From: Chloroflexota bacterium
GTDB lineage: Bacteria > Chloroflexota > Dehalococcoidia > SM23-28-2 > RBG-16-64-32
Length of the DNA stretch: 42,596 nucleotides
Direction of reading: 5' to 3'
Assembly: GCA_005880075.1 (NCBI GenBank)
Contig: VBJT01000001.1
Coordinates: forward strand, 4,379 to 46,974
The notes under the pieces were generated by a model, which was given only the letters and a program-made list of their open reading frames with translations, was not told the DNA's origin and did not search any database. Positions 28,670-37,156 of the stretch are shown here, piece after piece. The translations under genes and the position numbers were made by a program. Each line of letters opens with the position of its first letter. Position 1 is the first letter of the stretch.

Positions 28670-29912
28670 TCATATTACCGGCCCCGCTTCCGGCAGTGGC
28701 GGTGCTGGGTGTTCTGCAGGTTCGGCTGGCGAGGCTCGTAGTCCGCGCACCGGCGAGGCGGCGAGCCACAGCGCGGCGAGCAGCATCGCCACGGAGGCGA
28801 GCGTCAGCGTACCGCGCAGCCCGAGCGTCTCACCCAGACCGCCTCCGGCCAGAATGCCGAGCAGCAATACACCGTGGGCGCAGATCTCGAAGGCGGCATT
28901 GACCCGCCCGAGCAGGCGGTCGGGCGTTATCGTCTGGCGCAAGCTGACCTCGTTGATGCTGTAGACGATGAAGCCCCCGTCGCCCAGCTGCTGAGCCACC
29001 AGGAAGGCTGCCGCCAGGACCGCCCCTCCAGGGGCCAGGGGCACGAGAAGCATCGACGCACCAATGAATGCGAGCCCGGCCACCATCGAAGGGCCTATAC
29101 CGAGCCGCGAGGCTGCCCGCGAAGCGAAGACTGCCCCGACAAGCGAGCTCACGCCGCCGACCGCATAAATCATGCCGAGAACACCTGGCTGGAAATTGAG
29201 CACTCGAATGACGTATAAGCCGAAGGCCGCGCCGAACATTCCGAATGCGAAGTGGTTCAGGCATTCGCTTACTATCGTCGCTCTGAGGAATCGGTTGTCC
29301 AGAATGGTCCGAATTCCTTCCTGCGCCTCGCGGATAATCCCGATGCGCTCCCCTTTGGGCGCCGGCGAGTTTTCCATCTTGTTGATTCGCCCAATGAAGA
29401 ACGCGGAGAAGAGAAAGGACACCGCATCTATCAGGATCGCGATCGGACCGCTGAAGACTTGAACGAGCCACCCGGCCGTACCAAACGCTCCGACCTCAGC
29501 CGCTGACTCACTTGCGGTTAGCTTGCTGTTGCCCTCCAGCAATTGCTGTCAGAAACGCCACCACGTACAGCTGCTCCATTGTCAGAGCATCGAAGGCGTA
29601 GGTTGCCGGGATTGAGGCGAGCAGAGCTGCCCGGCCAAGGTCGGCGGCGATCATAATGGGACGGCGCCGGAGGCGGTCGACCCAGACGCCCACGAAAGGC
29701 GCGAAAATCAGCTCGGGCACGATACCCATGGCGAGGAGTGTCGCGATCTGCAAAGGTCGTGCATCGAGAACGAGAATGGCGGTGAATTGCAGCGCCGTCC
29801 GGCCGATCAATGAGCCGAAGACCGAGATCGTCTCGCCGGCCCAGAGCTTCACGAAGTCGGGATGCTGCCAAAGCCCATCGAAGCGGATGCGCGAAGAGAT
29901 CCACCCGCTCAT
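28670..29912 (-). pseudogene. MFS transporter (EntS/MFS_3-like) disrupted by an internal out-of-frame deletion
   Basis: The N-terminal ORF (29508-29912) and C-terminal ORF (28670-29542) are in different frames and overlap. The junction reads ...LYVVAFLTAI / QLLEGNSKL..., with about 20 residues missing compared with the paralog at 14031-15419. Confidence 0.7.
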
Positions 29913-30169
29913 GACTTCGACACCTCACGAGCGGAGAGGGAGTTTTGCCACCGAGCCGCGGCTGAATTGCAATTGCACGGGCGTGAGAGGGCGACCCGAC
30001 CACGACCGGCGCCCCGGCCGGTCGCCCCATCATCCGCCGGAAGCCGGGGGTTTGGGGCTGTCCCCCAATAACCTCCCGGGCGGGTGGGTGGGAAGATGGT
30101 CGCTCGGGACACAGGGCAAGCGCGGCCAATTTCCCGTTGGCTTGCCTCAGGAACCAGAGAGGTCCCCAC

Positions 30170-31369
30170 TTAGAGCCCTTTGTAGTTGATAAACTGACCG
30201 ATCTTCGTCACCGGCTCGATCAGGTCGGCCGAGTCCTCGATCACCGTCTCGATCGGCTTGTAGGCCGAAGGCGCCTCGTCCAGCAGCTTCTTGGCGTCGC
30301 GGTCCAGCCACGTCTTGCCCGCCATCTGCTTGCGGAACTCTTCCGCCGAGAGCGTCTTCCGCGCCTGGTTCCGGCCCATCACCCGCCCGGCGCCGTGCGG
30401 GCTGGTCGCGTACGCCTCGTCGTTCCCGCGCCCGCGCACGATGTACGTCGCCGCGCCCATGCTGCCGGGGATGATGCCCATCTTGCCCTCGCTTGCGTCG
30501 ATCGCGCCCTTGCGCGTGATCCAGCTGCCATCGTCTAGCCGCTCGGCGTAGTTGTGGTGGCAGTTGATGCGCTGTACCTCGTTCCAATCGCTCCCCACCT
30601 CCAGCGAGACGGCCTCCATCAACGAGTCCATCATCGCCTCGCGCTGCGCATAGGCATAATGCTGCGCCCACAGCATGTCCTCCAGGTAGGCCTCCGCCTC
30701 CTTCGTCCCGGCCATCAGGTAGGCGAAGTCCTTGTCCTCGAGCGCGATCCCCTCGGCGGCGCAGGCGTCCTTCGCGACGTGCACATGCGAAGTCGCGAGC
30801 AGGTTCCCAATGCCCCGCGAGCCCGAGTGCAGCAGCAGCCACACCTGCCCGCGCGCGTCCTCGCAGACCTCAACAAAGTGGTTACCGGCGCCGAGTGTCC
30901 CGAACTGGATTAGCGCCTTATTGCGCAGGTCCGGCGAGCGGCCGACGAGCGCCGCATTGTCGATGCCGGCCGGGAACCCGTTATCGTCGATGAACCGCTT
31001 CGCTTGCGCGAGCGGCCGCTTGTGGCTCGTGCCGACGCCGGAAGGAATCAGCTCGCGAATGTTATGGAGGACGCGGCCCTCCTTGCCGACGAAATCGTTC
31101 CGCTGTACGTCGGTCTGCACAGCGATCATCCCGCAGCCAATGTCCACGCCAACCGCGTAGGGCATTACCGCCTTCTTCGTCTTCAGCGCGCTCCCAACGG
31201 GCGGCCCGAAGCCGAAATGGGCATCGGGCATCAGCGCGAGATAGCCCTCGATGATCGCCAGCCGGCTGATTCGCTCCGCCTGCCGCATCGTTGCGTCGTC
31301 GATAATCGACGCCCAGGACTTGATCGTCCCCTTCCCGTATTCGTTTTCCGTCTCGTAAACCCCGATCAT
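30170..31369 (-). CDS. rtcB: RNA 3'-phosphate ligase RtcB
   Basis: MPDAHFGFGPPVG, DIGCGM, HSGSRGIGN and the INCHHNYA motifs. About 400 aa, the short bacterial form. The ATG at 31369 is preferred over the TTG at 31372. Confidence 0.9.
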   Translation of the reverse strand: MIGVYETENEYGKGTIKSWASIIDDATMRQAERISRLAIIEGYLALMPDAHFGFGPPVGSALKTKKAVMPYAVGVDIGCGMIAVQTDVQRNDFVGKEGRVLHNIRELIPSGVGTSHKRPLAQAKRFIDDNGFPAGIDNAALVGRSPDLRNKALIQFGTLGAGNHFVEVCEDARGQVWLLLHSGSRGIGNLLATSHVHVAKDACAAEGIALEDKDFAYLMAGTKEAEAYLEDMLWAQHYAYAQREAMMDSLMEAVSLEVGSDWNEVQRINCHHNYAERLDDGSWITRKGAIDASEGKMGIIPGSMGAATYIVRGRGNDEAYATSPHGAGRVMGRNQARKTLSAEEFRKQMAGKTWLDRDAKKLLDEAPSAYKPIETVIEDSADLIEPVTKIGQFINYKGL

Positions 31370-31454
31370 CAATAACCCATTCGTATGCGCTTACTAATCC
31401 GTTCGTGCTGAATTCACCGAAGCCGAAGCGAGTGACGGGCACACACGCTCGCCC

Positions 31455-32306
31455 CTAACCCTGCCTCTTCAACTGCCCTGTCTTCCGCGCCCAGCGTTCA
31501 GCCACCGCAAATACGGCGATACTGCCGGGCACGAGCACTATGCCGAAGAGGACCAGAATGCCCAGCGGGCCGAGCAGGTCCTGGACACCGTCGCCGTCGA
31601 TAATCGCCCCGCGGATACCGTCCAGGAGGTAAGTCGCCGGCGAGACGTACGAGAAGACGCGCAGCCACGGCGGCAGCACGTCGACGCTGTAGTACACACC
31701 CGAGATCAGCAGCACGACCGCTTGGATCATGAACGACATCTGCGTCCCGCGCTCTGGGTACAGCAGCGGCAGCACGCCCGTCAGGATGCCAAGGCCGGCA
31801 ACGCTAACGCTGCCCACGATGATCACAACCGCCGCGGCGAACCAGTTGGCCTGCCCCAGGTCCACGCTGAAGAACGGCACCGCGATCGCGAAGATCAGCG
31901 CCGTCCGTACGATCGCGTGCAGCACCCCGAAGATCGACATGCCGATCAAGTGCACGGCACGCGATACAGGCGCCATGAGGGTGTGCTCGATCGTTCCCTC
32001 CCAGCGCTCCCAGGTGATCACGAGGCTAATGTCGTCCAGCACCGCGGACAGGTACGCCCAAACGAGCGTTCCCAGCAGCAGAAAGAGCACGAGGTTCGAC
32101 GCATCCGTCGTGATTCCTGCCTGCTCCGCCTCCTTCGCAATGAATGTGATCGCCAGCGTGTTCACCACGCCGTAGACGAGCCACACCAGCTCCCATGCCC
32201 AGTAGCGCTTCCACAGGTTCGTCTGGCGCTCGACGAACGCGTAGGCAAGGTTGACCGGCCCGCGAATTAGCCCGGGCTGCGCTGTTCGCTCTCCTACGTT
32301 CAACAT
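31455..32306 (-). CDS. ABC-2 type exporter permease
   Basis: Six-helix ABC-2 membrane pattern of about 283 aa, in an operon with the ABC ATPase at 33913-34791. Confidence 0.8.
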   Translation of the reverse strand: MLNVGERTAQPGLIRGPVNLAYAFVERQTNLWKRYWAWELVWLVYGVVNTLAITFIAKEAEQAGITTDASNLVLFLLLGTLVWAYLSAVLDDISLVITWERWEGTIEHTLMAPVSRAVHLIGMSIFGVLHAIVRTALIFAIAVPFFSVDLGQANWFAAAVVIIVGSVSVAGLGILTGVLPLLYPERGTQMSFMIQAVVLLISGVYYSVDVLPPWLRVFSYVSPATYLLDGIRGAIIDGDGVQDLLGPLGILVLFGIVLVPGSIAVFAVAERWARKTGQLKRQG

Positions 32307-32341
32307 CTCGCTACTCCCCGTTCTTAGTTGGCTACCTATGC

Positions 32342-33910
32342 CTAGTCCCGCCGCCGGTCGATCAGCTCGCGGACCGTTCCGTCTTTAACCTCGTACACCC
32401 GCGTCGCGATTCGGTCGAGGATCGCCTGATCGTGCGCCGCGCACAGAATCGTCTCCGGGTACCTCTCAAGGACCTCGAGGAGCTTCCGTCGCGTCGAGCG
32501 GTCGAGGTGGTTCGTGGGCTCGTCAAGTACGAGCACGTTTGTAGGTTTCAGTACCAGTTTCGCGAGGGCTACGCGACTGCGCTCTCCGCCGGAGAGCACC
32601 TCTATTCGCTTGAAGGCGTCGTCGCCGCGGAACAAGAACTGCCCGAGTACCGTTCGCAGCCTCACTTCCGCCTCGTTCGTTGCTACCGATTGCACCTCCT
32701 CGAGCACCGTTCGGCCGCGCTCCAGGGCCTCGTCCTGGTGCTGGTCGTAGTAACCAATGCGAGCCTTGGGGGCCCAGCGCACCCTTCCCTCCAGCGGCGG
32801 GAGAAGCCCGGCCGCAATCCTCAGGAGAGTCGTCTTGCCGCTGCCGTTCGGGCCGACGAGCACCGCCTTCTGGCCGCGCACTAGGTGCAGAGACGCATTC
32901 ATGAGCACCACGTTGTCTCCATATGCATGGGTGATGCGCTCCATCCGCAACACATCGTGCTCTGTGCGGCCGTCCGCCGATAGGGATATGTGGACCTCTG
33001 ACTCGGGCCTTGTGTGCTCGATTCGTTCGATCTTCGCCAGCGCCTTCTCGCGGCTCTTGACAACGGTGGCCTTGCTGTTCTTCGCGCGAAAGCGCTCAAT
33101 GAACCGCTGCTGGCGCGTCATCTCGCGCTCCTGGCGAGCTGCCGCGCGGTCCTGCTGCTGCAGCCGCGCGGCCTTTTGTCGCTGATACTCGCTGTAGTTG
33201 CCGCCGTAGCTCTCGATAGACTGTTCCCGAAGTTCCAGGATTCGCGTGGCCACGCGGTCAAGAAATTCGCCATCGTGCGTGACTACAAGAACTGTGCCGC
33301 GGTAGTTGCTCAGCTCTTCGGCGAGCCAGTCACGTGACCGTGCGTCCAAATGGTTTGTTGGCTCGTCGAGCAGAAGGCAGTCGGGGCGTGTTACCAACAC
33401 CTTCGCCAATGCGATCCGCATCTGCCAGCCCCCACTGAATTCGCCACAGAGCTTTGTCCCTTCTCCGGCAGCGAAGCCGAGTCCATTGAGGACGCGGCCG
33501 ATGCGCTGCTCGATCCGATAGCCCTCCAGCGCCTCGAACCGATCAAAGAGACCGCCCTGCTCGGCGATCAGACTGCCGATGTCTCCTTCACCCCGCTCGA
33601 TTTCCTCAGCAATCTCGTGCAGTCGCGCCTCGGTCTGCCGCGCCTCCGGAAAGGCCCTCCATAGCTCATCGACGAGCGTGCGGTGGGAATCAAGCCCCGC
33701 CTCTTGCCGAAGATAACCAAGCGAGCCGCGGTGTTCCGCCCGACCGGCGTCTGCGTCTTCCTCGCCTGCCAGCAGGCGCAACAGCGTGGTCTTCCCGGCG
33801 CCGTTTGGCCCGACCAGACCCACCAGCTCGCCCGTTCCAACGACAAACGAGACGTCCTCGAGCACATCGAGGCCGCCGAAGGACTTGCACACGCCTTCTG
33901 CAAAGAACAT
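32342..33910 (-). CDS. ABC-F family ATPase (two tandem ABC domains, no membrane domain)
   Basis: Two Walker A motifs (GPNGAGKTT, GPNGSGKTT). Two signature motifs (FSGGWQMR, LSGGERSR). Basic interdomain linker QQRFIERFRAKNSKATVVKSREKALAKIE. Confidence 0.9.
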   Translation of the reverse strand: MFFAEGVCKSFGGLDVLEDVSFVVGTGELVGLVGPNGAGKTTLLRLLAGEEDADAGRAEHRGSLGYLRQEAGLDSHRTLVDELWRAFPEARQTEARLHEIAEEIERGEGDIGSLIAEQGGLFDRFEALEGYRIEQRIGRVLNGLGFAAGEGTKLCGEFSGGWQMRIALAKVLVTRPDCLLLDEPTNHLDARSRDWLAEELSNYRGTVLVVTHDGEFLDRVATRILELREQSIESYGGNYSEYQRQKAARLQQQDRAAARQEREMTRQQRFIERFRAKNSKATVVKSREKALAKIERIEHTRPESEVHISLSADGRTEHDVLRMERITHAYGDNVVLMNASLHLVRGQKAVLVGPNGSGKTTLLRIAAGLLPPLEGRVRWAPKARIGYYDQHQDEALERGRTVLEEVQSVATNEAEVRLRTVLGQFLFRGDDAFKRIEVLSGGERSRVALAKLVLKPTNVLVLDEPTNHLDRSTRRKLLEVLERYPETILCAAHDQAILDRIATRVYEVKDGTVRELIDRRRD

Positions 33911-33912
33911 CC

Positions 33913-34791
33913 CTACAGGGCCGCGAGGACCTCCTCCTTCACGTCCTCGTCCTCCTCGATCCGCTTGCCTGTAAGCTCCATGAATACGGTCTCCATCGTT
34001 ATCTCCTCGACCGGCCGGCCACGCGCGACCCGCTCTCGCAACTCGAACGGGGTTCCCTCTGCCACGATCCGCCCGCCCGCGATGAAGGCGATGCGGTCAC
34101 AGAGAAGCTCCGCCTCTTCCATGTCGTGGGTTGTCAGCAGGATCGTGCTGTCGTGCTCGGCGCGCACTTGCCGCACGAACGCCTGCACGTCCCGCTTGCT
34201 GCGCGGGTCGAGCCCGGTCGTCGGCTCGTCGAGCAGCATCAGAACCGGTGATGTCAGGAACGAACGCGCCACGGCCATCTTTTGCTGCTGCCCGCGCGAA
34301 AGGTGGCTCATCGGCTCCTGCGCCCGCTCCCACTCGAATCCCAGCCGCGCGAGAATACCCGGTAGCCGCCGCTTGATCTCGGCCGGCGAGAGGCCGTAGA
34401 CCCGCCCGAAGAAGAGCAGGTTTTCAACCGCCGACATATTGCGGAAGAACGAAGGGTCAGCGGACACGCGATTGATGAGCGAGCGCACCTCGCTCGACTC
34501 GCGGACGACGTCGTGGCCGAAGATGCGCGCTTCTCCGCTGTCCGGCAGGAGCAGCGTGCTCAGTATGCGGACGAGCGTGCTCTTGCCCGAGCCGTTCGCG
34601 CCGAGCACCCCGTAGATCTCGCCCCGCTGCGCACCAAAGGATATATCCCGCAGGACGTGCGCTGGGCGCTTCCTCGCTCCGGTCGCCCTGAGCCTATCGA
34701 AGGGTTTCCCGATCGGCAGCAGACGGCGGTAGTCGAAGCCGCCGCCGAAATATTTGTTTACATGTCTCGTCTCGATTGCAGGCGTAGTCAT
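33913..34791 (-). CDS. ABC-2 exporter ATP-binding protein (DrrA/CcmA-like)
   Basis: GANGSGKST Walker A, LSRGQQQK signature, [10 protein letters not shown] Walker B. GGAG SD 6 nt upstream. Its stop lies 2 nt before the ABC-F start codon. Confidence 0.9.
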
Positions 34792-34823
34792 CCCTGTCTC
34801 CGTTCAACTACTCACGTACTAGT

Positions 34824-34994
34824 TCACGAGCTCCGGCCCGGCTGTCGCTCACCCCGCCGGGCTACACCGCTCTCCGTCCGCATCTTCCACGCCTTCGTAA
34901 GGGGCGACCTCGACGATGTTAGTGGTCCAGGACCGGCCGGACTGCTGAAGCTCCGTTTCTGCGTTCTCTTCCTCTTCTTTTTCTGGCGCGACAT
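34824..34994 (-). CDS. Candidate 56-codon ORF encoding a very basic peptide, between the leader terminator and the ABC ATPase gene
   Basis: My translation is MSRQKKKRKRTQKRSFSSPAGPGPLTSSRSPLTKAWKMRTESGVARRGERQPGRSS. AAGGAG lies exactly 7 nt upstream of the ATG. The composition is not clearly protein-like. Confidence 0.3.
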   Translation of the reverse strand: MSRQKKKRKRTQKRSFSSPAGPGPLTSSRSPLTKAWKMRTESGVARRGERQPGRSS

Positions 34995-35020
34995 CTGTTT
35001 TCTCCTTGGCTTGTTGGCAA

Positions 35021-35054
35021 CAAAAAACCCACCAGGGCCAGCCCTAGGCGGGTG
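35021..35054 (-). terminator. Intrinsic terminator at the end of the leader upstream of the ABC/ABC-F operon
   Basis: Minus strand reads CCCGCC-T-AGGG-CTGG-CCCT-GGTGGG (10 paired positions including one G-U), followed by TTTTTTG. Confidence 0.7.
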
Positions 35055-35228
35055 AGAACGGAGCGTCGCGGCCGTCAGTTTAACTCAGGTAGGTCCTCCT
35101 GAAACGGGCGCACTCGTCCCACCCACGCGCGGTCCACCGTCCGGCGCAATGGGCACCTGACGGCTGACCGGGGCAACAAACGTGTTTATCAACTGACGAA
35201 TGTCCCTTTCACCAACTCCAAAATATCT
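35055..35228 (-). ncRNA. Unclassified structured leader RNA of about 175 nt (attenuator or riboswitch candidate)
   Basis: It lies between the promoter at 35235-35263 and the terminator at 35021-35054. It contains an 8-bp long-range helix, CGTCAGTT (35191-35198) with AACTGACG (35073-35080). An alternative pairing of GGGTGGGACG with CGTTCTCACCC overlaps the terminator's 5' arm. Confidence 0.4.
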
Positions 35229-35234
35229 TGCCGG

Positions 35235-35263
35235 ATAGTAGCACCAGCGCCGGAAGGTGTCAA
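35235..35263 (-). promoter_or_regulatory. Sigma-70-like promoter driving the leader and the ABC/ABC-F operon
   Basis: Minus strand reads TTGACA (35258-35263), a 17-nt spacer, then TACTAT (35235-35240). Confidence 0.5.
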
Positions 35264-35323
35264 GCATCTCTCACCGGCGGGAGAAACTTGTCCGTCCTCC
35301 GCCGCGACCACCATACTGGATTC

Positions 35324-37156
35324 ATGCCCACACGAGACGACCTCCGCAATGTTGCTATTGTCGCGCACGTTGACCACGGCAAGACCACCCTCGTCGATGC
35401 CATGCTCTGGCAGTCGGGCGCCTTCCGTGCGAACCAGGATGTCGCGGAGCGCGTGATGGACTCGATGGACCTGGAGCGCGAGAAGGGGATCACCATCCTC
35501 GCCAAGAACACAGCGGTCCGCCACTCCGGCGTGAAGATCAATATCATCGACACCCCAGGACATGCCGATTTCGGCGGGGAAGTCGAGCGCGGACTGACCA
35601 TGGTTGACGGCGTGCTTCTGCTCGTCGACGCGAGCGAGGGACCGCTGCCGCAGACTCGTTTCGTCCTACGCAAGGCGCTCGAGGCGCACCTTCCAGTCAT
35701 CCTCGTGATCAACAAGGTCGACCGCCCCGACGCCCGCATCAAAGAGGTCGTCGACGAGGTCTACGAGCTGTTCCTCGACCTCGACGCGGACGAGCACCAG
35801 ATCGAGTTCCCTATCCTATACGCCAACGCCCGCGCCGGTTGGGCATCGCCGGCGCCCAACGATCACGGCATTGACCTAGAGCCGCTCTTTGATGCGCTGT
35901 TTCGGCACATTCCGCCACCCGCATACGACAGCGACCATCCGCTTCAGGCGCTCGTCACCAATCTCGACGCCTCGCCCTACATAGGTCGCCTCGCCCTCTG
36001 CCGGGTGCACCACGGGACTATCCGCCGGGGCCAGACGGTCGCCTGGTGCCGCGTCGACGGGGAGATCGAGCAGGTAAAGATCACCGAGCTCTTTGTCACC
36101 GAGGCCCTCGAACGGGTACCGGCCAACGAAGCCGGTCCCGGCGAGATTATCGCTATCGCCGGCTTGCCGGGGGTGACGATCGGCGAGACGCTCGCGGACG
36201 TCGACGATCCGCGCCCGCTGCCCGTTCCACACATCGATGAGCCAAGTCTCTCAATGACCATCGGGATTAACACTTCGCCAATGGCAGGAAACGATGGATC
36301 CAAGCTGACCGCGCGTCTGGTCAAGAACCGTCTGGACGCGGAAGTGGTGGGCAACGTCTCTGTCAGGGTGCGTCCGACAGACCGGCCGGACACCTGGGAA
36401 GTGCAAGGAAGGGGCGAGCTTCAGCTGGCGATCCTGGTTGAGACGATGCGCCGCGAGGGGTTCGAGCTGACCGTCGGCAAGCCACAGGTAGTCACGAAGT
36501 TAGTGGACGGAAAACTCTGCGAGCCGGTCGAACGGCTGTCGATCGACATCCCTGAGGACTACCTCGGCGTCGTCACTCAGCTTTTGGCGCTGCGCAAGGG
36601 CCGTCTCGAGCACATGGTCAACCACGGGACCGGCTGGGTGCGCCAGGAATACCTTGGCCCAGCGCGCGCCCTTATCGGCTTTCATACGGAGTTCCTGACT
36701 GAAACTCGCGGCACCGGCATTCTGCACCACGTCTTCGAGCTCTACGAACCCTGGCACGGCGACCTCCGCACACGTCCCACCGGCAGCCTTGTCGCAGACC
36801 GCCGCGGCCAGAGCTCCTCCTATGCGCTGATCAACCTGCAGGAGCGGGGGACGCTGTTCATCGGCCCCGGCATCGAGGTCTACGAGGGGATGATCGTCGG
36901 CGAGAACGCCCGACTTGAAGACATCGACGTAAATCCCGCGAAAGAGAAGAAGGCGACCAACATTCGCTCCTCCACCGCCGAGCAGACGGAGGGGCTCATC
37001 CCGCACCGGCAGCTATCGCTGGAGCAGGCCCTCGAGTTCCTGCGTGAAGACGAGTGCCTGGAGGTGACGCCCAACCACATCCGCCTGCGCAAGACGATGT
37101 TGAGCACGCTGGACCGCGGGCGTCGCAAGAAGAACGCGGCTGCCGTCGCTCCCTAG
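35324..37156 (+). CDS. typA: Translational GTPase TypA/BipA
   Basis: [29 protein letters not shown]-terminus, [19 protein letters not shown], and the EF-G-like domain order. The start is set at the ATG at 35324; the track ORF's 32 extra codons are not TypA-like. Confidence 0.95.

Follow-up and report, generated by a model that had tools for sequence, protein, structure and literature searches.

Ribosome-mediated transcription attenuation of a multidrug-type exporter has been described for bmrB-bmrCD of Bacillus subtilis, wherein protein-synthesis inhibitors reportedly act as inducers only if the leader open reading frame (ORF) is translated (Reilman et al., 2014; PMC4191407). In this work, we analyzed the leader region at positions 35263-35021, minus strand, of a 42,596-nt stretch of DNA from a Chloroflexota bacterium (GenBank assembly GCA_005880075.1, contig VBJT01000001.1; the whole stretch is hereafter called the window), which precedes an operon for an ABC-2 type exporter. 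We propose, with a probability of about 0.7, that the region is a leader-peptide, namely ribosome-dependent, transcription attenuator of this conserved exporter operon, and bmrB-bmrCD would be its best functional analogue. In bmrB-bmrCD, a small ORF reportedly shares its transcript with the ABC exporter genes behind it, and the leader has alternative stem-loops as well as an intrinsic terminator, a layout that the window resembles. However, the two leaders are unrelated in sequence; BmrCD is a full-size ABC exporter and a heterodimer, whereas the window encodes an ABC-2 ATPase plus a permease; the bmrB terminator lies inside the coding region, whereas that of the window begins 33 nt past the stop codon of the leader ORF; and induction has been reported for bmrB-bmrCD, whereas for the window we infer it.

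The leaders of the resistance ABC-F genes vmlR (PMC9226507), msrD (PMC10314930) and lmrC (PMC8546547), on which an antibiotic-stalled ribosome leads to read-through, are similar in combining a short leader ORF with a terminator and an antiterminator, and the operon of the window also holds an ABC-F gene. They differ in that the leader family of the window belongs to an ABC-2 exporter, with a YheS-like ABC-F in the nearest clade only, and in that the leader ORF (upstream ORF, uORF) of this family is longer, 27-44 codons, with no known stalling motif identified in it. With the trp-type attenuators of Proteobacteria, the region shares a leader peptide, mutually exclusive antiterminator and terminator structures, and a presumed role for the position of the ribosome relative to RNA polymerase, whereas its uORF is devoid of runs of regulatory codons, its 1:2 hairpin, which would serve as anti-antiterminator or pause hairpin, is not convincingly conserved, and the genes behind it encode an exporter, not a biosynthetic pathway. 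In ermC, as would be the case here, translation of a leader ORF controls access to a downstream element, but the element at stake in the window is an intrinsic terminator and not a structural gene's ribosome-binding site; the Acidimicrobiales version of the exporter operon described below resembles the ermC type. The leader peptides TnaC and SpeFL are 24-34 residues long, are conserved in their C-terminal part and have a stop codon that matters for function, and the leader peptide of the window is comparable to them in length, C-terminal conservation and stop codon. However, TnaC and SpeFL act on Rho-dependent termination in a manner dependent on the peptide sequence, whereas the window has an intrinsic terminator and a peptide without purifying selection.

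Results

The leader and the ABC-2 exporter are associated in both directions across Chloroflexota

Through alignment of homologues of the ATPase encoded behind the leader (hundreds of close ones, from metagenome genomes of Chloroflexota/Dehalococcoidia type), 80 genome loci were fetched, and the same leader arrangement was found upstream of the ATPase gene in 59 of them, all labelled Chloroflexota, Chloroflexi, Chloroflexia or Dehalococcoidia, save one 'uncultured bacterium'. The conserved box of the leader alone (GTGGGYSGGAYGAGTGYGYCC) was also used to scan metagenome contigs. Of the 84 stretches retrieved, about 70 contain a terminator 91-122 nt downstream, directly followed by the ATPase if the contig is long enough; about 8 have neither terminator nor ATPase and look like chance matches. 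Since the ATPase finds the leader and the box alone finds the ATPase, the leader-exporter association holds both ways, and on these counts the recurrence of the arrangement is far above chance. Rfam 15 gave no match at gathering score across the whole window and, with E values up to 10, just two chance snoRNA matches (E 2.9 and 5.8) in 34750-35400, in line with a preliminary description of this locus that could assign the leader to no known riboswitch class; the literature searched likewise contained no description of this leader. As far as the searches went, it is outside every described leader family and Rfam class.

The promoter given in the preliminary description proved to be the sole sigma-70-like site in 29500-35400. 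It lies at 35263-35235 on the minus strand and comprises a -35 element TTGACA (35263-35258), a 17-nt spacer with TG and a -10 element TACTAT (35240-35235); TTGAC(A/T)-17/19-TAnnnT stands at the equivalent position in 58 of the 59 related leaders, and the transcription start would be near 35228. The intrinsic terminator (35052-35021, minus strand), also recognized earlier, consists of a GC-rich hairpin (35052-35028, -18.6 kcal/mol) of 10 bp with one bulged U, in which 35052-35042 pairs with 35037-35028 around a CUGG loop, and of the following UUUUUUG (35027-35021; U-tract 35027-35022). It is conserved as CCCAC...GUGGG(U)5-8 in every related leader, while its upper stem varies with compensatory changes, e.g. 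UA 59 / CG 30 at pair 103:123 of a MAFFT alignment of 104 leaders. The SD-led (Shine-Dalgarno) genes said to follow the terminator are present, and with regard to a transcription start downstream of the terminator, no further promoter-like site was found between it and the operon genes in the window.

The leader holds an ORF whose reading frame is conserved

The preliminary description saw no convincing ORF in the leader. This view has to be revised, as the leader holds a 35-codon ORF on the minus strand (35192-35085, from TTG at 35192-35190 to TGA at 35087-35085) with conserved frame, start and stop position, which was masked in the ORF listing by a longer 60-aa ORF (35085..35267) that begins within the promoter. 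An SD-like sequence, GAAAGGGA (35210-35203), is located 10 nt upstream of its start codon, and the relatives carry AAAGGAG, GGAG or AGGA 5-14 nt 5′ of theirs. All 59 genome leaders have an ORF in this frame, of 27-44 codons (median 36), which starts with ATG in 52, TTG in 6 and GTG in 1 and stops with TGA in 55, and the distance from the ORF end to the U-tract end is 61-73 nt in every leader. Across the ORF span, all 59 leaders are open in frame 0, compared with just 5 and 28 for the two other frames. Similarly, among 63 distinct box-selected metagenome leaders an in-frame upstream ATG (12-32 codons, open frame) occurs in 40, the other frames giving 0 and 1, and the remaining 23 are mostly from the window's own TTG-starting clade. 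A 7-codon GTG ORF put forward previously as a possible uORF does exist in the window, but an equivalent abutting the main start is found in just 15 of the 59 leaders, in few subfamilies.

Substitutions among related leaders of equal length are spread over codon positions 1, 2 and 3 as 197, 240 and 259, which indicates that the sequence of the leader peptide is not under purifying selection while the reading frame is kept; together, these two features fit a regulatory leader peptide and not a functional one, and the peptide as a functional product was rejected on this codon-position test. The N-terminal halves of the uORF peptides are rich in I/V/F and S/T/N, followed by arginines; no runs of any single codon occur in the uORF, and amino-acid attenuation was rejected for want of regulatory-codon runs.

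The codon-position result also bears on a very unlikely explanation, in which the short transcript is the product itself, either a trans-acting small RNA or the mRNA for a functional 35-aa peptide, e.g. one that leaves the cell through the ABC-2 transporter, and the terminator merely sets the ratio of peptide to transporter. A strong promoter followed by a strong terminator would yield an abundant transcript of about 205 nt, and the layout matches the order of peptide gene, leaky terminator and ABC-2 transporter that is common in bacteriocin loci. However, the peptide shows no purifying selection, neither a signal or leader motif nor modification enzymes were found in the operon, and the covarying antiterminator described next speaks for a regulated switch over a fixed leak.

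A box inside the uORF co-varies with the terminator 5′ arm region

Inside the uORF, always in codon phase 0, lies a box of 19-21 nt (box 1) that is nearly invariant among the 104 leaders and in the window reads GUGGGUGGGACGAGUGCGCCC (35126-35106, minus strand), its sole match there. In most leaders, including 51 of the 63 metagenome ones, the box starts 39 nt (13 codons) before the uORF stop. As the 5′ strand of an antiterminator, it pairs in the minimum free energy fold of the window with the 3′ strand CGCGACGCUCCGUUCUCACCCGC (35070-35048, minus strand), the last 5 nt of which (35052-35048) are the base of the terminator 5′ arm. An antiterminator-like alternative pairing with this arm had been noticed before, and its complementarity is confirmed: GUGGGUGGGA (35126-35117) is complementary to UCUCACCCGC (35057-35048), the latter overlapping the terminator 5′ arm by 5 nt.

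The box and the terminator 5′ arm region co-vary. Across the family, GUGGGUGGGAUGAG occurs with CUCAUCC-ACCCAC, GUGGGUCGGAU with GUUCGACCCAC, GGGAUGCGUG with CACGCAUUCC, and GGACUA with UAGUCC. When the energies of the cognate duplexes between the box and its downstream partner (segment 3) were compared with those of partners permuted among leaders (5000 permutations), the whole helix gave -21.27 kcal/mol against -18.44±0.33 for the permuted pairs, and the helix without its invariant GUGGG:CCCAC part gave -10.17 against -8.73±0.25 kcal/mol, with 0 of 5000 permutations as low in either case. In the alignment, where the two registers of the antiterminator upper helix limit column counting, the sixth pair (columns 12:96) is UA 68 / CG 15 / UG 9, the antiterminator covariation score exceeds all 500 shuffles, and 77.5% of the antiterminator cells are paired, versus 54-57% with the partner slid by one column. 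An antiterminator that sits on the terminator 5′ arm and co-varies with it supports the conditional read-through control that the preliminary description had proposed for this terminator. Among the helices proposed there, covariation favors the antiterminator pairing, but not the 8-bp helix CGTCAGTT/AACTGACG (35198-35191 / 35080-35073), which is perfect in the window but not conserved; it was rejected, being unchanged in the nearest relatives, altered on one or both strands without compensation in others (e.g. L107, L089, L121) and missing farther out than the nearest clade.

In the window, the antiterminator state is predicted at -80.2 and the terminator state at -77.7 kcal/mol; across the family the terminator state is more stable by 2.9±4.9 kcal/mol on average, and the antiterminator state is more stable in 14 of 59 leaders. 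By these folding energies, full-length leaders are close to bistable. Such nearly isoenergetic alternative structures could also belong to a riboswitch or other ligand-binding RNA, the other option left by the preliminary description beside an attenuator, wherein a metabolite or ion bound to the box and hairpin would pick the fold and the ORF would be incidental. The conservation of the box at the nucleotide level, and a small local hairpin that RNAalifold predicts within it, are compatible with this. However, Rfam gave no match at either threshold, no conserved multi-helix aptamer was found, the 5′ half has no consensus structure and weak z-scores, and the ORF is conserved in start, frame and stop to a degree far exceeding that of the other frames; moreover, the two alternative pairings account for the conserved nucleotides. 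Therefore, the attenuator option, which fits the conserved ORF, is retained, and we attach very little credence to the riboswitch.

The 5′ half of the uORF (35174-35130, minus strand) includes a predicted GC-rich hairpin (35170-35130), and in the window GCCC (35174-35171) can pair over 4 bp with GGGU of the box (35124-35121), stacked on this hairpin. Cognate duplexes of this upstream segment (segment 1) with the box have -14.28 kcal/mol versus -13.47±0.27 for permuted ones, an advantage of 0.8 kcal/mol (p ~0.002), and in the terminator-state folds the box pairs upstream without energetic cost. The pairing between segment 1 and the box is a weakly supported candidate for an anti-antiterminator, the fourth element of the classical design, which would enforce termination as long as no ribosome is stalled.

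The region around the uORF stop codon carries further conserved elements

An internal SD-like element, AGGAGG (35100-35095, minus strand), is located 7 nt upstream of the uORF stop codon. Of the 104 leaders, 92 have GGAG, GAGG or AGGA at 9-16 nt ahead of the stop, versus 6 with such a tetramer in the 24 nt that follow it; the amino acids encoded at the element vary, and the element is conserved in varying frames. The stop codon itself stands in the conserved context UGA-GU-UAA (35087-35080, minus strand; family consensus UGAGUUAG, the context being also given as UGAGUUAA), of which T, G, A and the T(U) at +5 are each at least 90% conserved. The context NUGA-NU-UAR is also readable as SD-N6-NUG-ANU-UAG, a three-codon 'start-X-stop'.

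These elements could point to an arrest peptide of the TnaC or SpeFL type, in which the nascent motif VG-G/R-T/M-S-A/V-P, 13 to 7 residues from the end of the uORF peptide, together with a small molecule would stall the ribosome at or near the UGA and thereby set the RNA fold. The recurring peptide motif is encoded by the box, the distance of 13 codons between box and stop is constant, the stop (TGA in 55 of 59) and its context are conserved, and the pre-stop SD-like element could hold the ribosome there. However, the even spread of substitutions over the codon positions argues against selection on this peptide, the variation of the motif tracks RNA pairing and not amino-acid similarity (S/R, T/M/I, with third positions co-varying with segment 3), the residues between motif and stop are not conserved, and the SD-like element is kept in varying frames, so that we consider an arrest peptide decidedly improbable.

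Since the box and the stop context are stricter than pairing alone requires, an RNA-binding protein that recognizes the box or the UGAGUUAG element and stabilizes one fold was considered as well. No candidate regulator gene is conserved beside the operon, no repeated binding motifs of the TRAP, PyrR or RAT type occur in the sequence, and the conserved ORF would be left unexplained by such a protein, which makes this the least probable of the explanations weighed here.

The fixed box-stop distance, the stop context and the pre-stop SD-like element together suggest a role for where the terminating ribosome stands or how long it stays there; the edge of a ribosome that has UGA in its A site would fall immediately 3′ of the box. 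It is conceivable, though on the whole improbable, that what the device reads is how long the ribosome dwells at termination, which would make it a sensor of a drug, a metabolite, or release-factor or ribosome-rescue capacity and not of elongation speed, with the exporter as an ancient translation-stress system.

Sequences downstream of the terminator and metatranscriptome contigs

In one subfamily (L005, L010, L015, L017, L021, L026 and others), ACUGACAG-N-CCGGAGGC-N6-AUG follows 20-40 nt past the terminator. The CTGACA found after the terminator in 17 of 58 relatives was considered as a second promoter and rejected; as it lacks a -10 partner, the CTGACA region of the subfamily is probably no promoter but conserved as part of translation initiation.

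Four soil/sediment metatranscriptomes yielded low-depth contigs from relatives only, most of the depth being cross-mapping to ABC and GTPase motifs. One contig of 222 nt (run X19, depth 2.7, ~95% identity) covers 35172-34951, namely the uORF interior, the terminator and the start of the small ORF behind it.

The leader belongs to an ABC-2 exporter into which ABC-F was recently inserted

The region 35263-35021 is the divergent spacer between typA/bipA on the plus strand and the exporter operon on the minus strand. The gene behind the leader throughout the family encodes a DrrA-like ABC-2 transporter ATPase (34791-33913 in the window, minus strand), which in the window is followed on the same strand by an ABC-F ATPase with two ABC domains and a linker (33910-32342) and by the ABC-2 permease of the operon (32306-31455). 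The ATPase and permease genes are separated by the ABC-F gene in no loci other than the window and those with an ATPase at least 89% identical (ABC-F-bearing loci L001, L084, L089, L104, L107, L124, L131, L151 and L155); elsewhere the permease comes directly after the ATPase, including in members of the small-ORF clade at 83-86% identity, and about 120 related leaders precede ATPase plus permease without ABC-F. Because ABC-F is confined to the nearest clade, the leader is that of the ABC-2 exporter, and ABC-F is a recent insertion. The window ABC-F passes the generic NCBIfam model 'ribosomal protection-like ABC-F' (NF000355; 415 bits versus a cut-off of 380), and its best matches of solved structure are YheS (376 bits), YbiT and EttA, with VmlR, Lsa, Vga and Msr far from it. 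These data do not justify an antibiotic-resistance label for the gene. The earlier premise of an ABC-F operon thus holds for the window, where the gene is indeed part of the operon, but not for the leader family.

Between the terminator and the ATPase gene of the window lies a 56-codon ORF (34994-34824, minus strand) with a strong SD, AAGGAGAAAACAGATG, which would encode a very basic small protein with the N-terminus MSRQKKKR and the C-terminus RRGERQPGRSS (MSRQKKKRKRTQKRS...RRGERQPGRSS). It is kept only in the window's near clade of about 20 close relatives, with a near-invariant C-terminus, and it has no Pfam or NCBIfam match. In relatives farther away, its place is taken by other short ORFs or by an N-terminally extended ATPase.

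The minus-strand operon of the window continues with an RtcB RNA ligase gene (31372-30170), separated from the permease gene by 82 nt; no terminator-like site was found between the two in the window, and RtcB recurs downstream in several relatives. On the other side, the ribosome-associated GTPase gene typA/bipA (35324-37156, plus strand, ATG at 35324) is the divergent neighbor, as it is in at least 9 genome loci besides the window. The neighbors RtcB and BipA/TypA are all related to translation or translation repair. Farther downstream, an MFS_3/EntS-like transporter gene (~28670-29912, minus strand) shows an apparent frameshift split near 29540, its N-terminal part (MSGWISSRIRFDGLWQHPDFVKLW...AFLTAI) being in one frame and its C-terminal 290 aa (28670-29542) in another; this is either a pseudogene or an assembly error.

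A different uORF device precedes the same exporter in Acidimicrobiales

The exporter is unusually conserved, with ATPase identities of 62-93% across two phyla, and the Chloroflexota leader is absent from the Acidimicrobiales loci of the same exporter. At least 9 of 18 Acidimicrobiales loci (L049-L057, L067, L079 and others) carry instead, about 70-150 nt upstream of the ATPase start, a 7-codon GTG ORF (MRTVVFL, MQTVVFL or similar) followed by a GC-rich hairpin, and a promoter-like TTTGGC/TAGGAT pair, read by eye without a scan, is near it. The ORF sequence CGUCGUCUUCCUC is complementary to the SD region of the ATPase gene GAGGAGACGACG, 50-70 nt downstream (~-21 kcal/mol). By its sequence, this device looks like translational attenuation of the ermC kind, unrelated to the Chloroflexota leader. 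As a different uORF device thus stands before the same exporter in Acidimicrobiales, the coupling of this exporter to translation recurs.

Discussion

Based on these findings, we propose that the leader works as follows. The sigma-70 promoter would give a transcript whose first ~205 nt carry the 35-codon ORF and then the intrinsic terminator, and the box inside the ORF would pair with the terminator 5′ arm and the adjoining upstream sequence, so that the antiterminator would exclude the terminator hairpin. Because the box lies in RNA that we infer to be translated, the position of the leading ribosome at the time of terminator synthesis would decide the outcome. During normal translation, the ribosome on or close behind the box would make it unavailable, the terminator would form, and transcription would stop near 35022. 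If the ribosome were slowed or stalled within the first half of the ORF, or if none were present, the box would be free, and the antiterminator would form and allow read-through into the exporter genes. As a ribosome delay frees the box, the operon would switch on when translation is slowed. The signal would most plausibly be ribosome-targeting compounds that are counteracted by the exporter, and here by ABC-F as well; translation inhibition is the natural candidate, as for bmrB-bmrCD, whose antibiotic induction needs translation of its leader ORF. Three structural parts of an attenuator, namely a leader ORF with an SD, an intrinsic terminator and an antiterminator embedded in the ORF, are present in the leader.

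Several observations weigh against this proposal. The anti-antiterminator is weak, with its 4 bp in the window and 5′-half energy z-scores of about -1.1 on average, and RNAalifold gave neither consensus nor covariation for the 5′ half, whether on fixed-length classes or on a MAFFT alignment of 113 distinct 5′ halves. When the terminator 3′ arm is omitted, equilibrium folding pairs the box with CCCAC in 48 of 59 leaders. The spacing from SD to start codon is long (10-14 nt), and the start codon of the window is TTG. The simple model accounts neither for the SD-like element before the stop nor for the context of the stop codon, and a ribosome sitting precisely on that codon would leave the box uncovered. 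The 222-nt metatranscriptome contig, the sole RNA evidence, is compatible with read-through transcripts but no proof of them, and it may stem from DNA carry-over.

As the antiterminator is favored before the terminator 3′ arm exists, the untranslated leader may be ON, and termination may need active translation. Whether the untranslated default is ON or OFF, both versions of the attenuator agree that slowed or stalled early translation would lead to read-through.

If this reading is correct, the leader represents a widespread and well-defined cis-regulatory family of at least 130 examples, and this in a phylum whose gene regulation is almost uncharacterized; the family is newly recognized while its mechanism would be classical, and the unexplained details around the stop codon could raise its significance. 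With a canonical promoter and a canonical terminator, the element should be transferable to model hosts. Should the device instead read how long the ribosome dwells at termination, an ancient translation-stress export system would have recruited ABC-F and perhaps RtcB. With the attenuator proposed here, the expression of the exporter would be tied to the state of translation in soil Chloroflexota, and in Acidimicrobiales through a different uORF device, and this link to translation would be a lead to the substrate of the exporter, perhaps ribosome-targeting natural products. In the clade of the window, the capture of ABC-F within an operon that already responded to stalling would be a plausible route to inducible control of an ABC-F gene.

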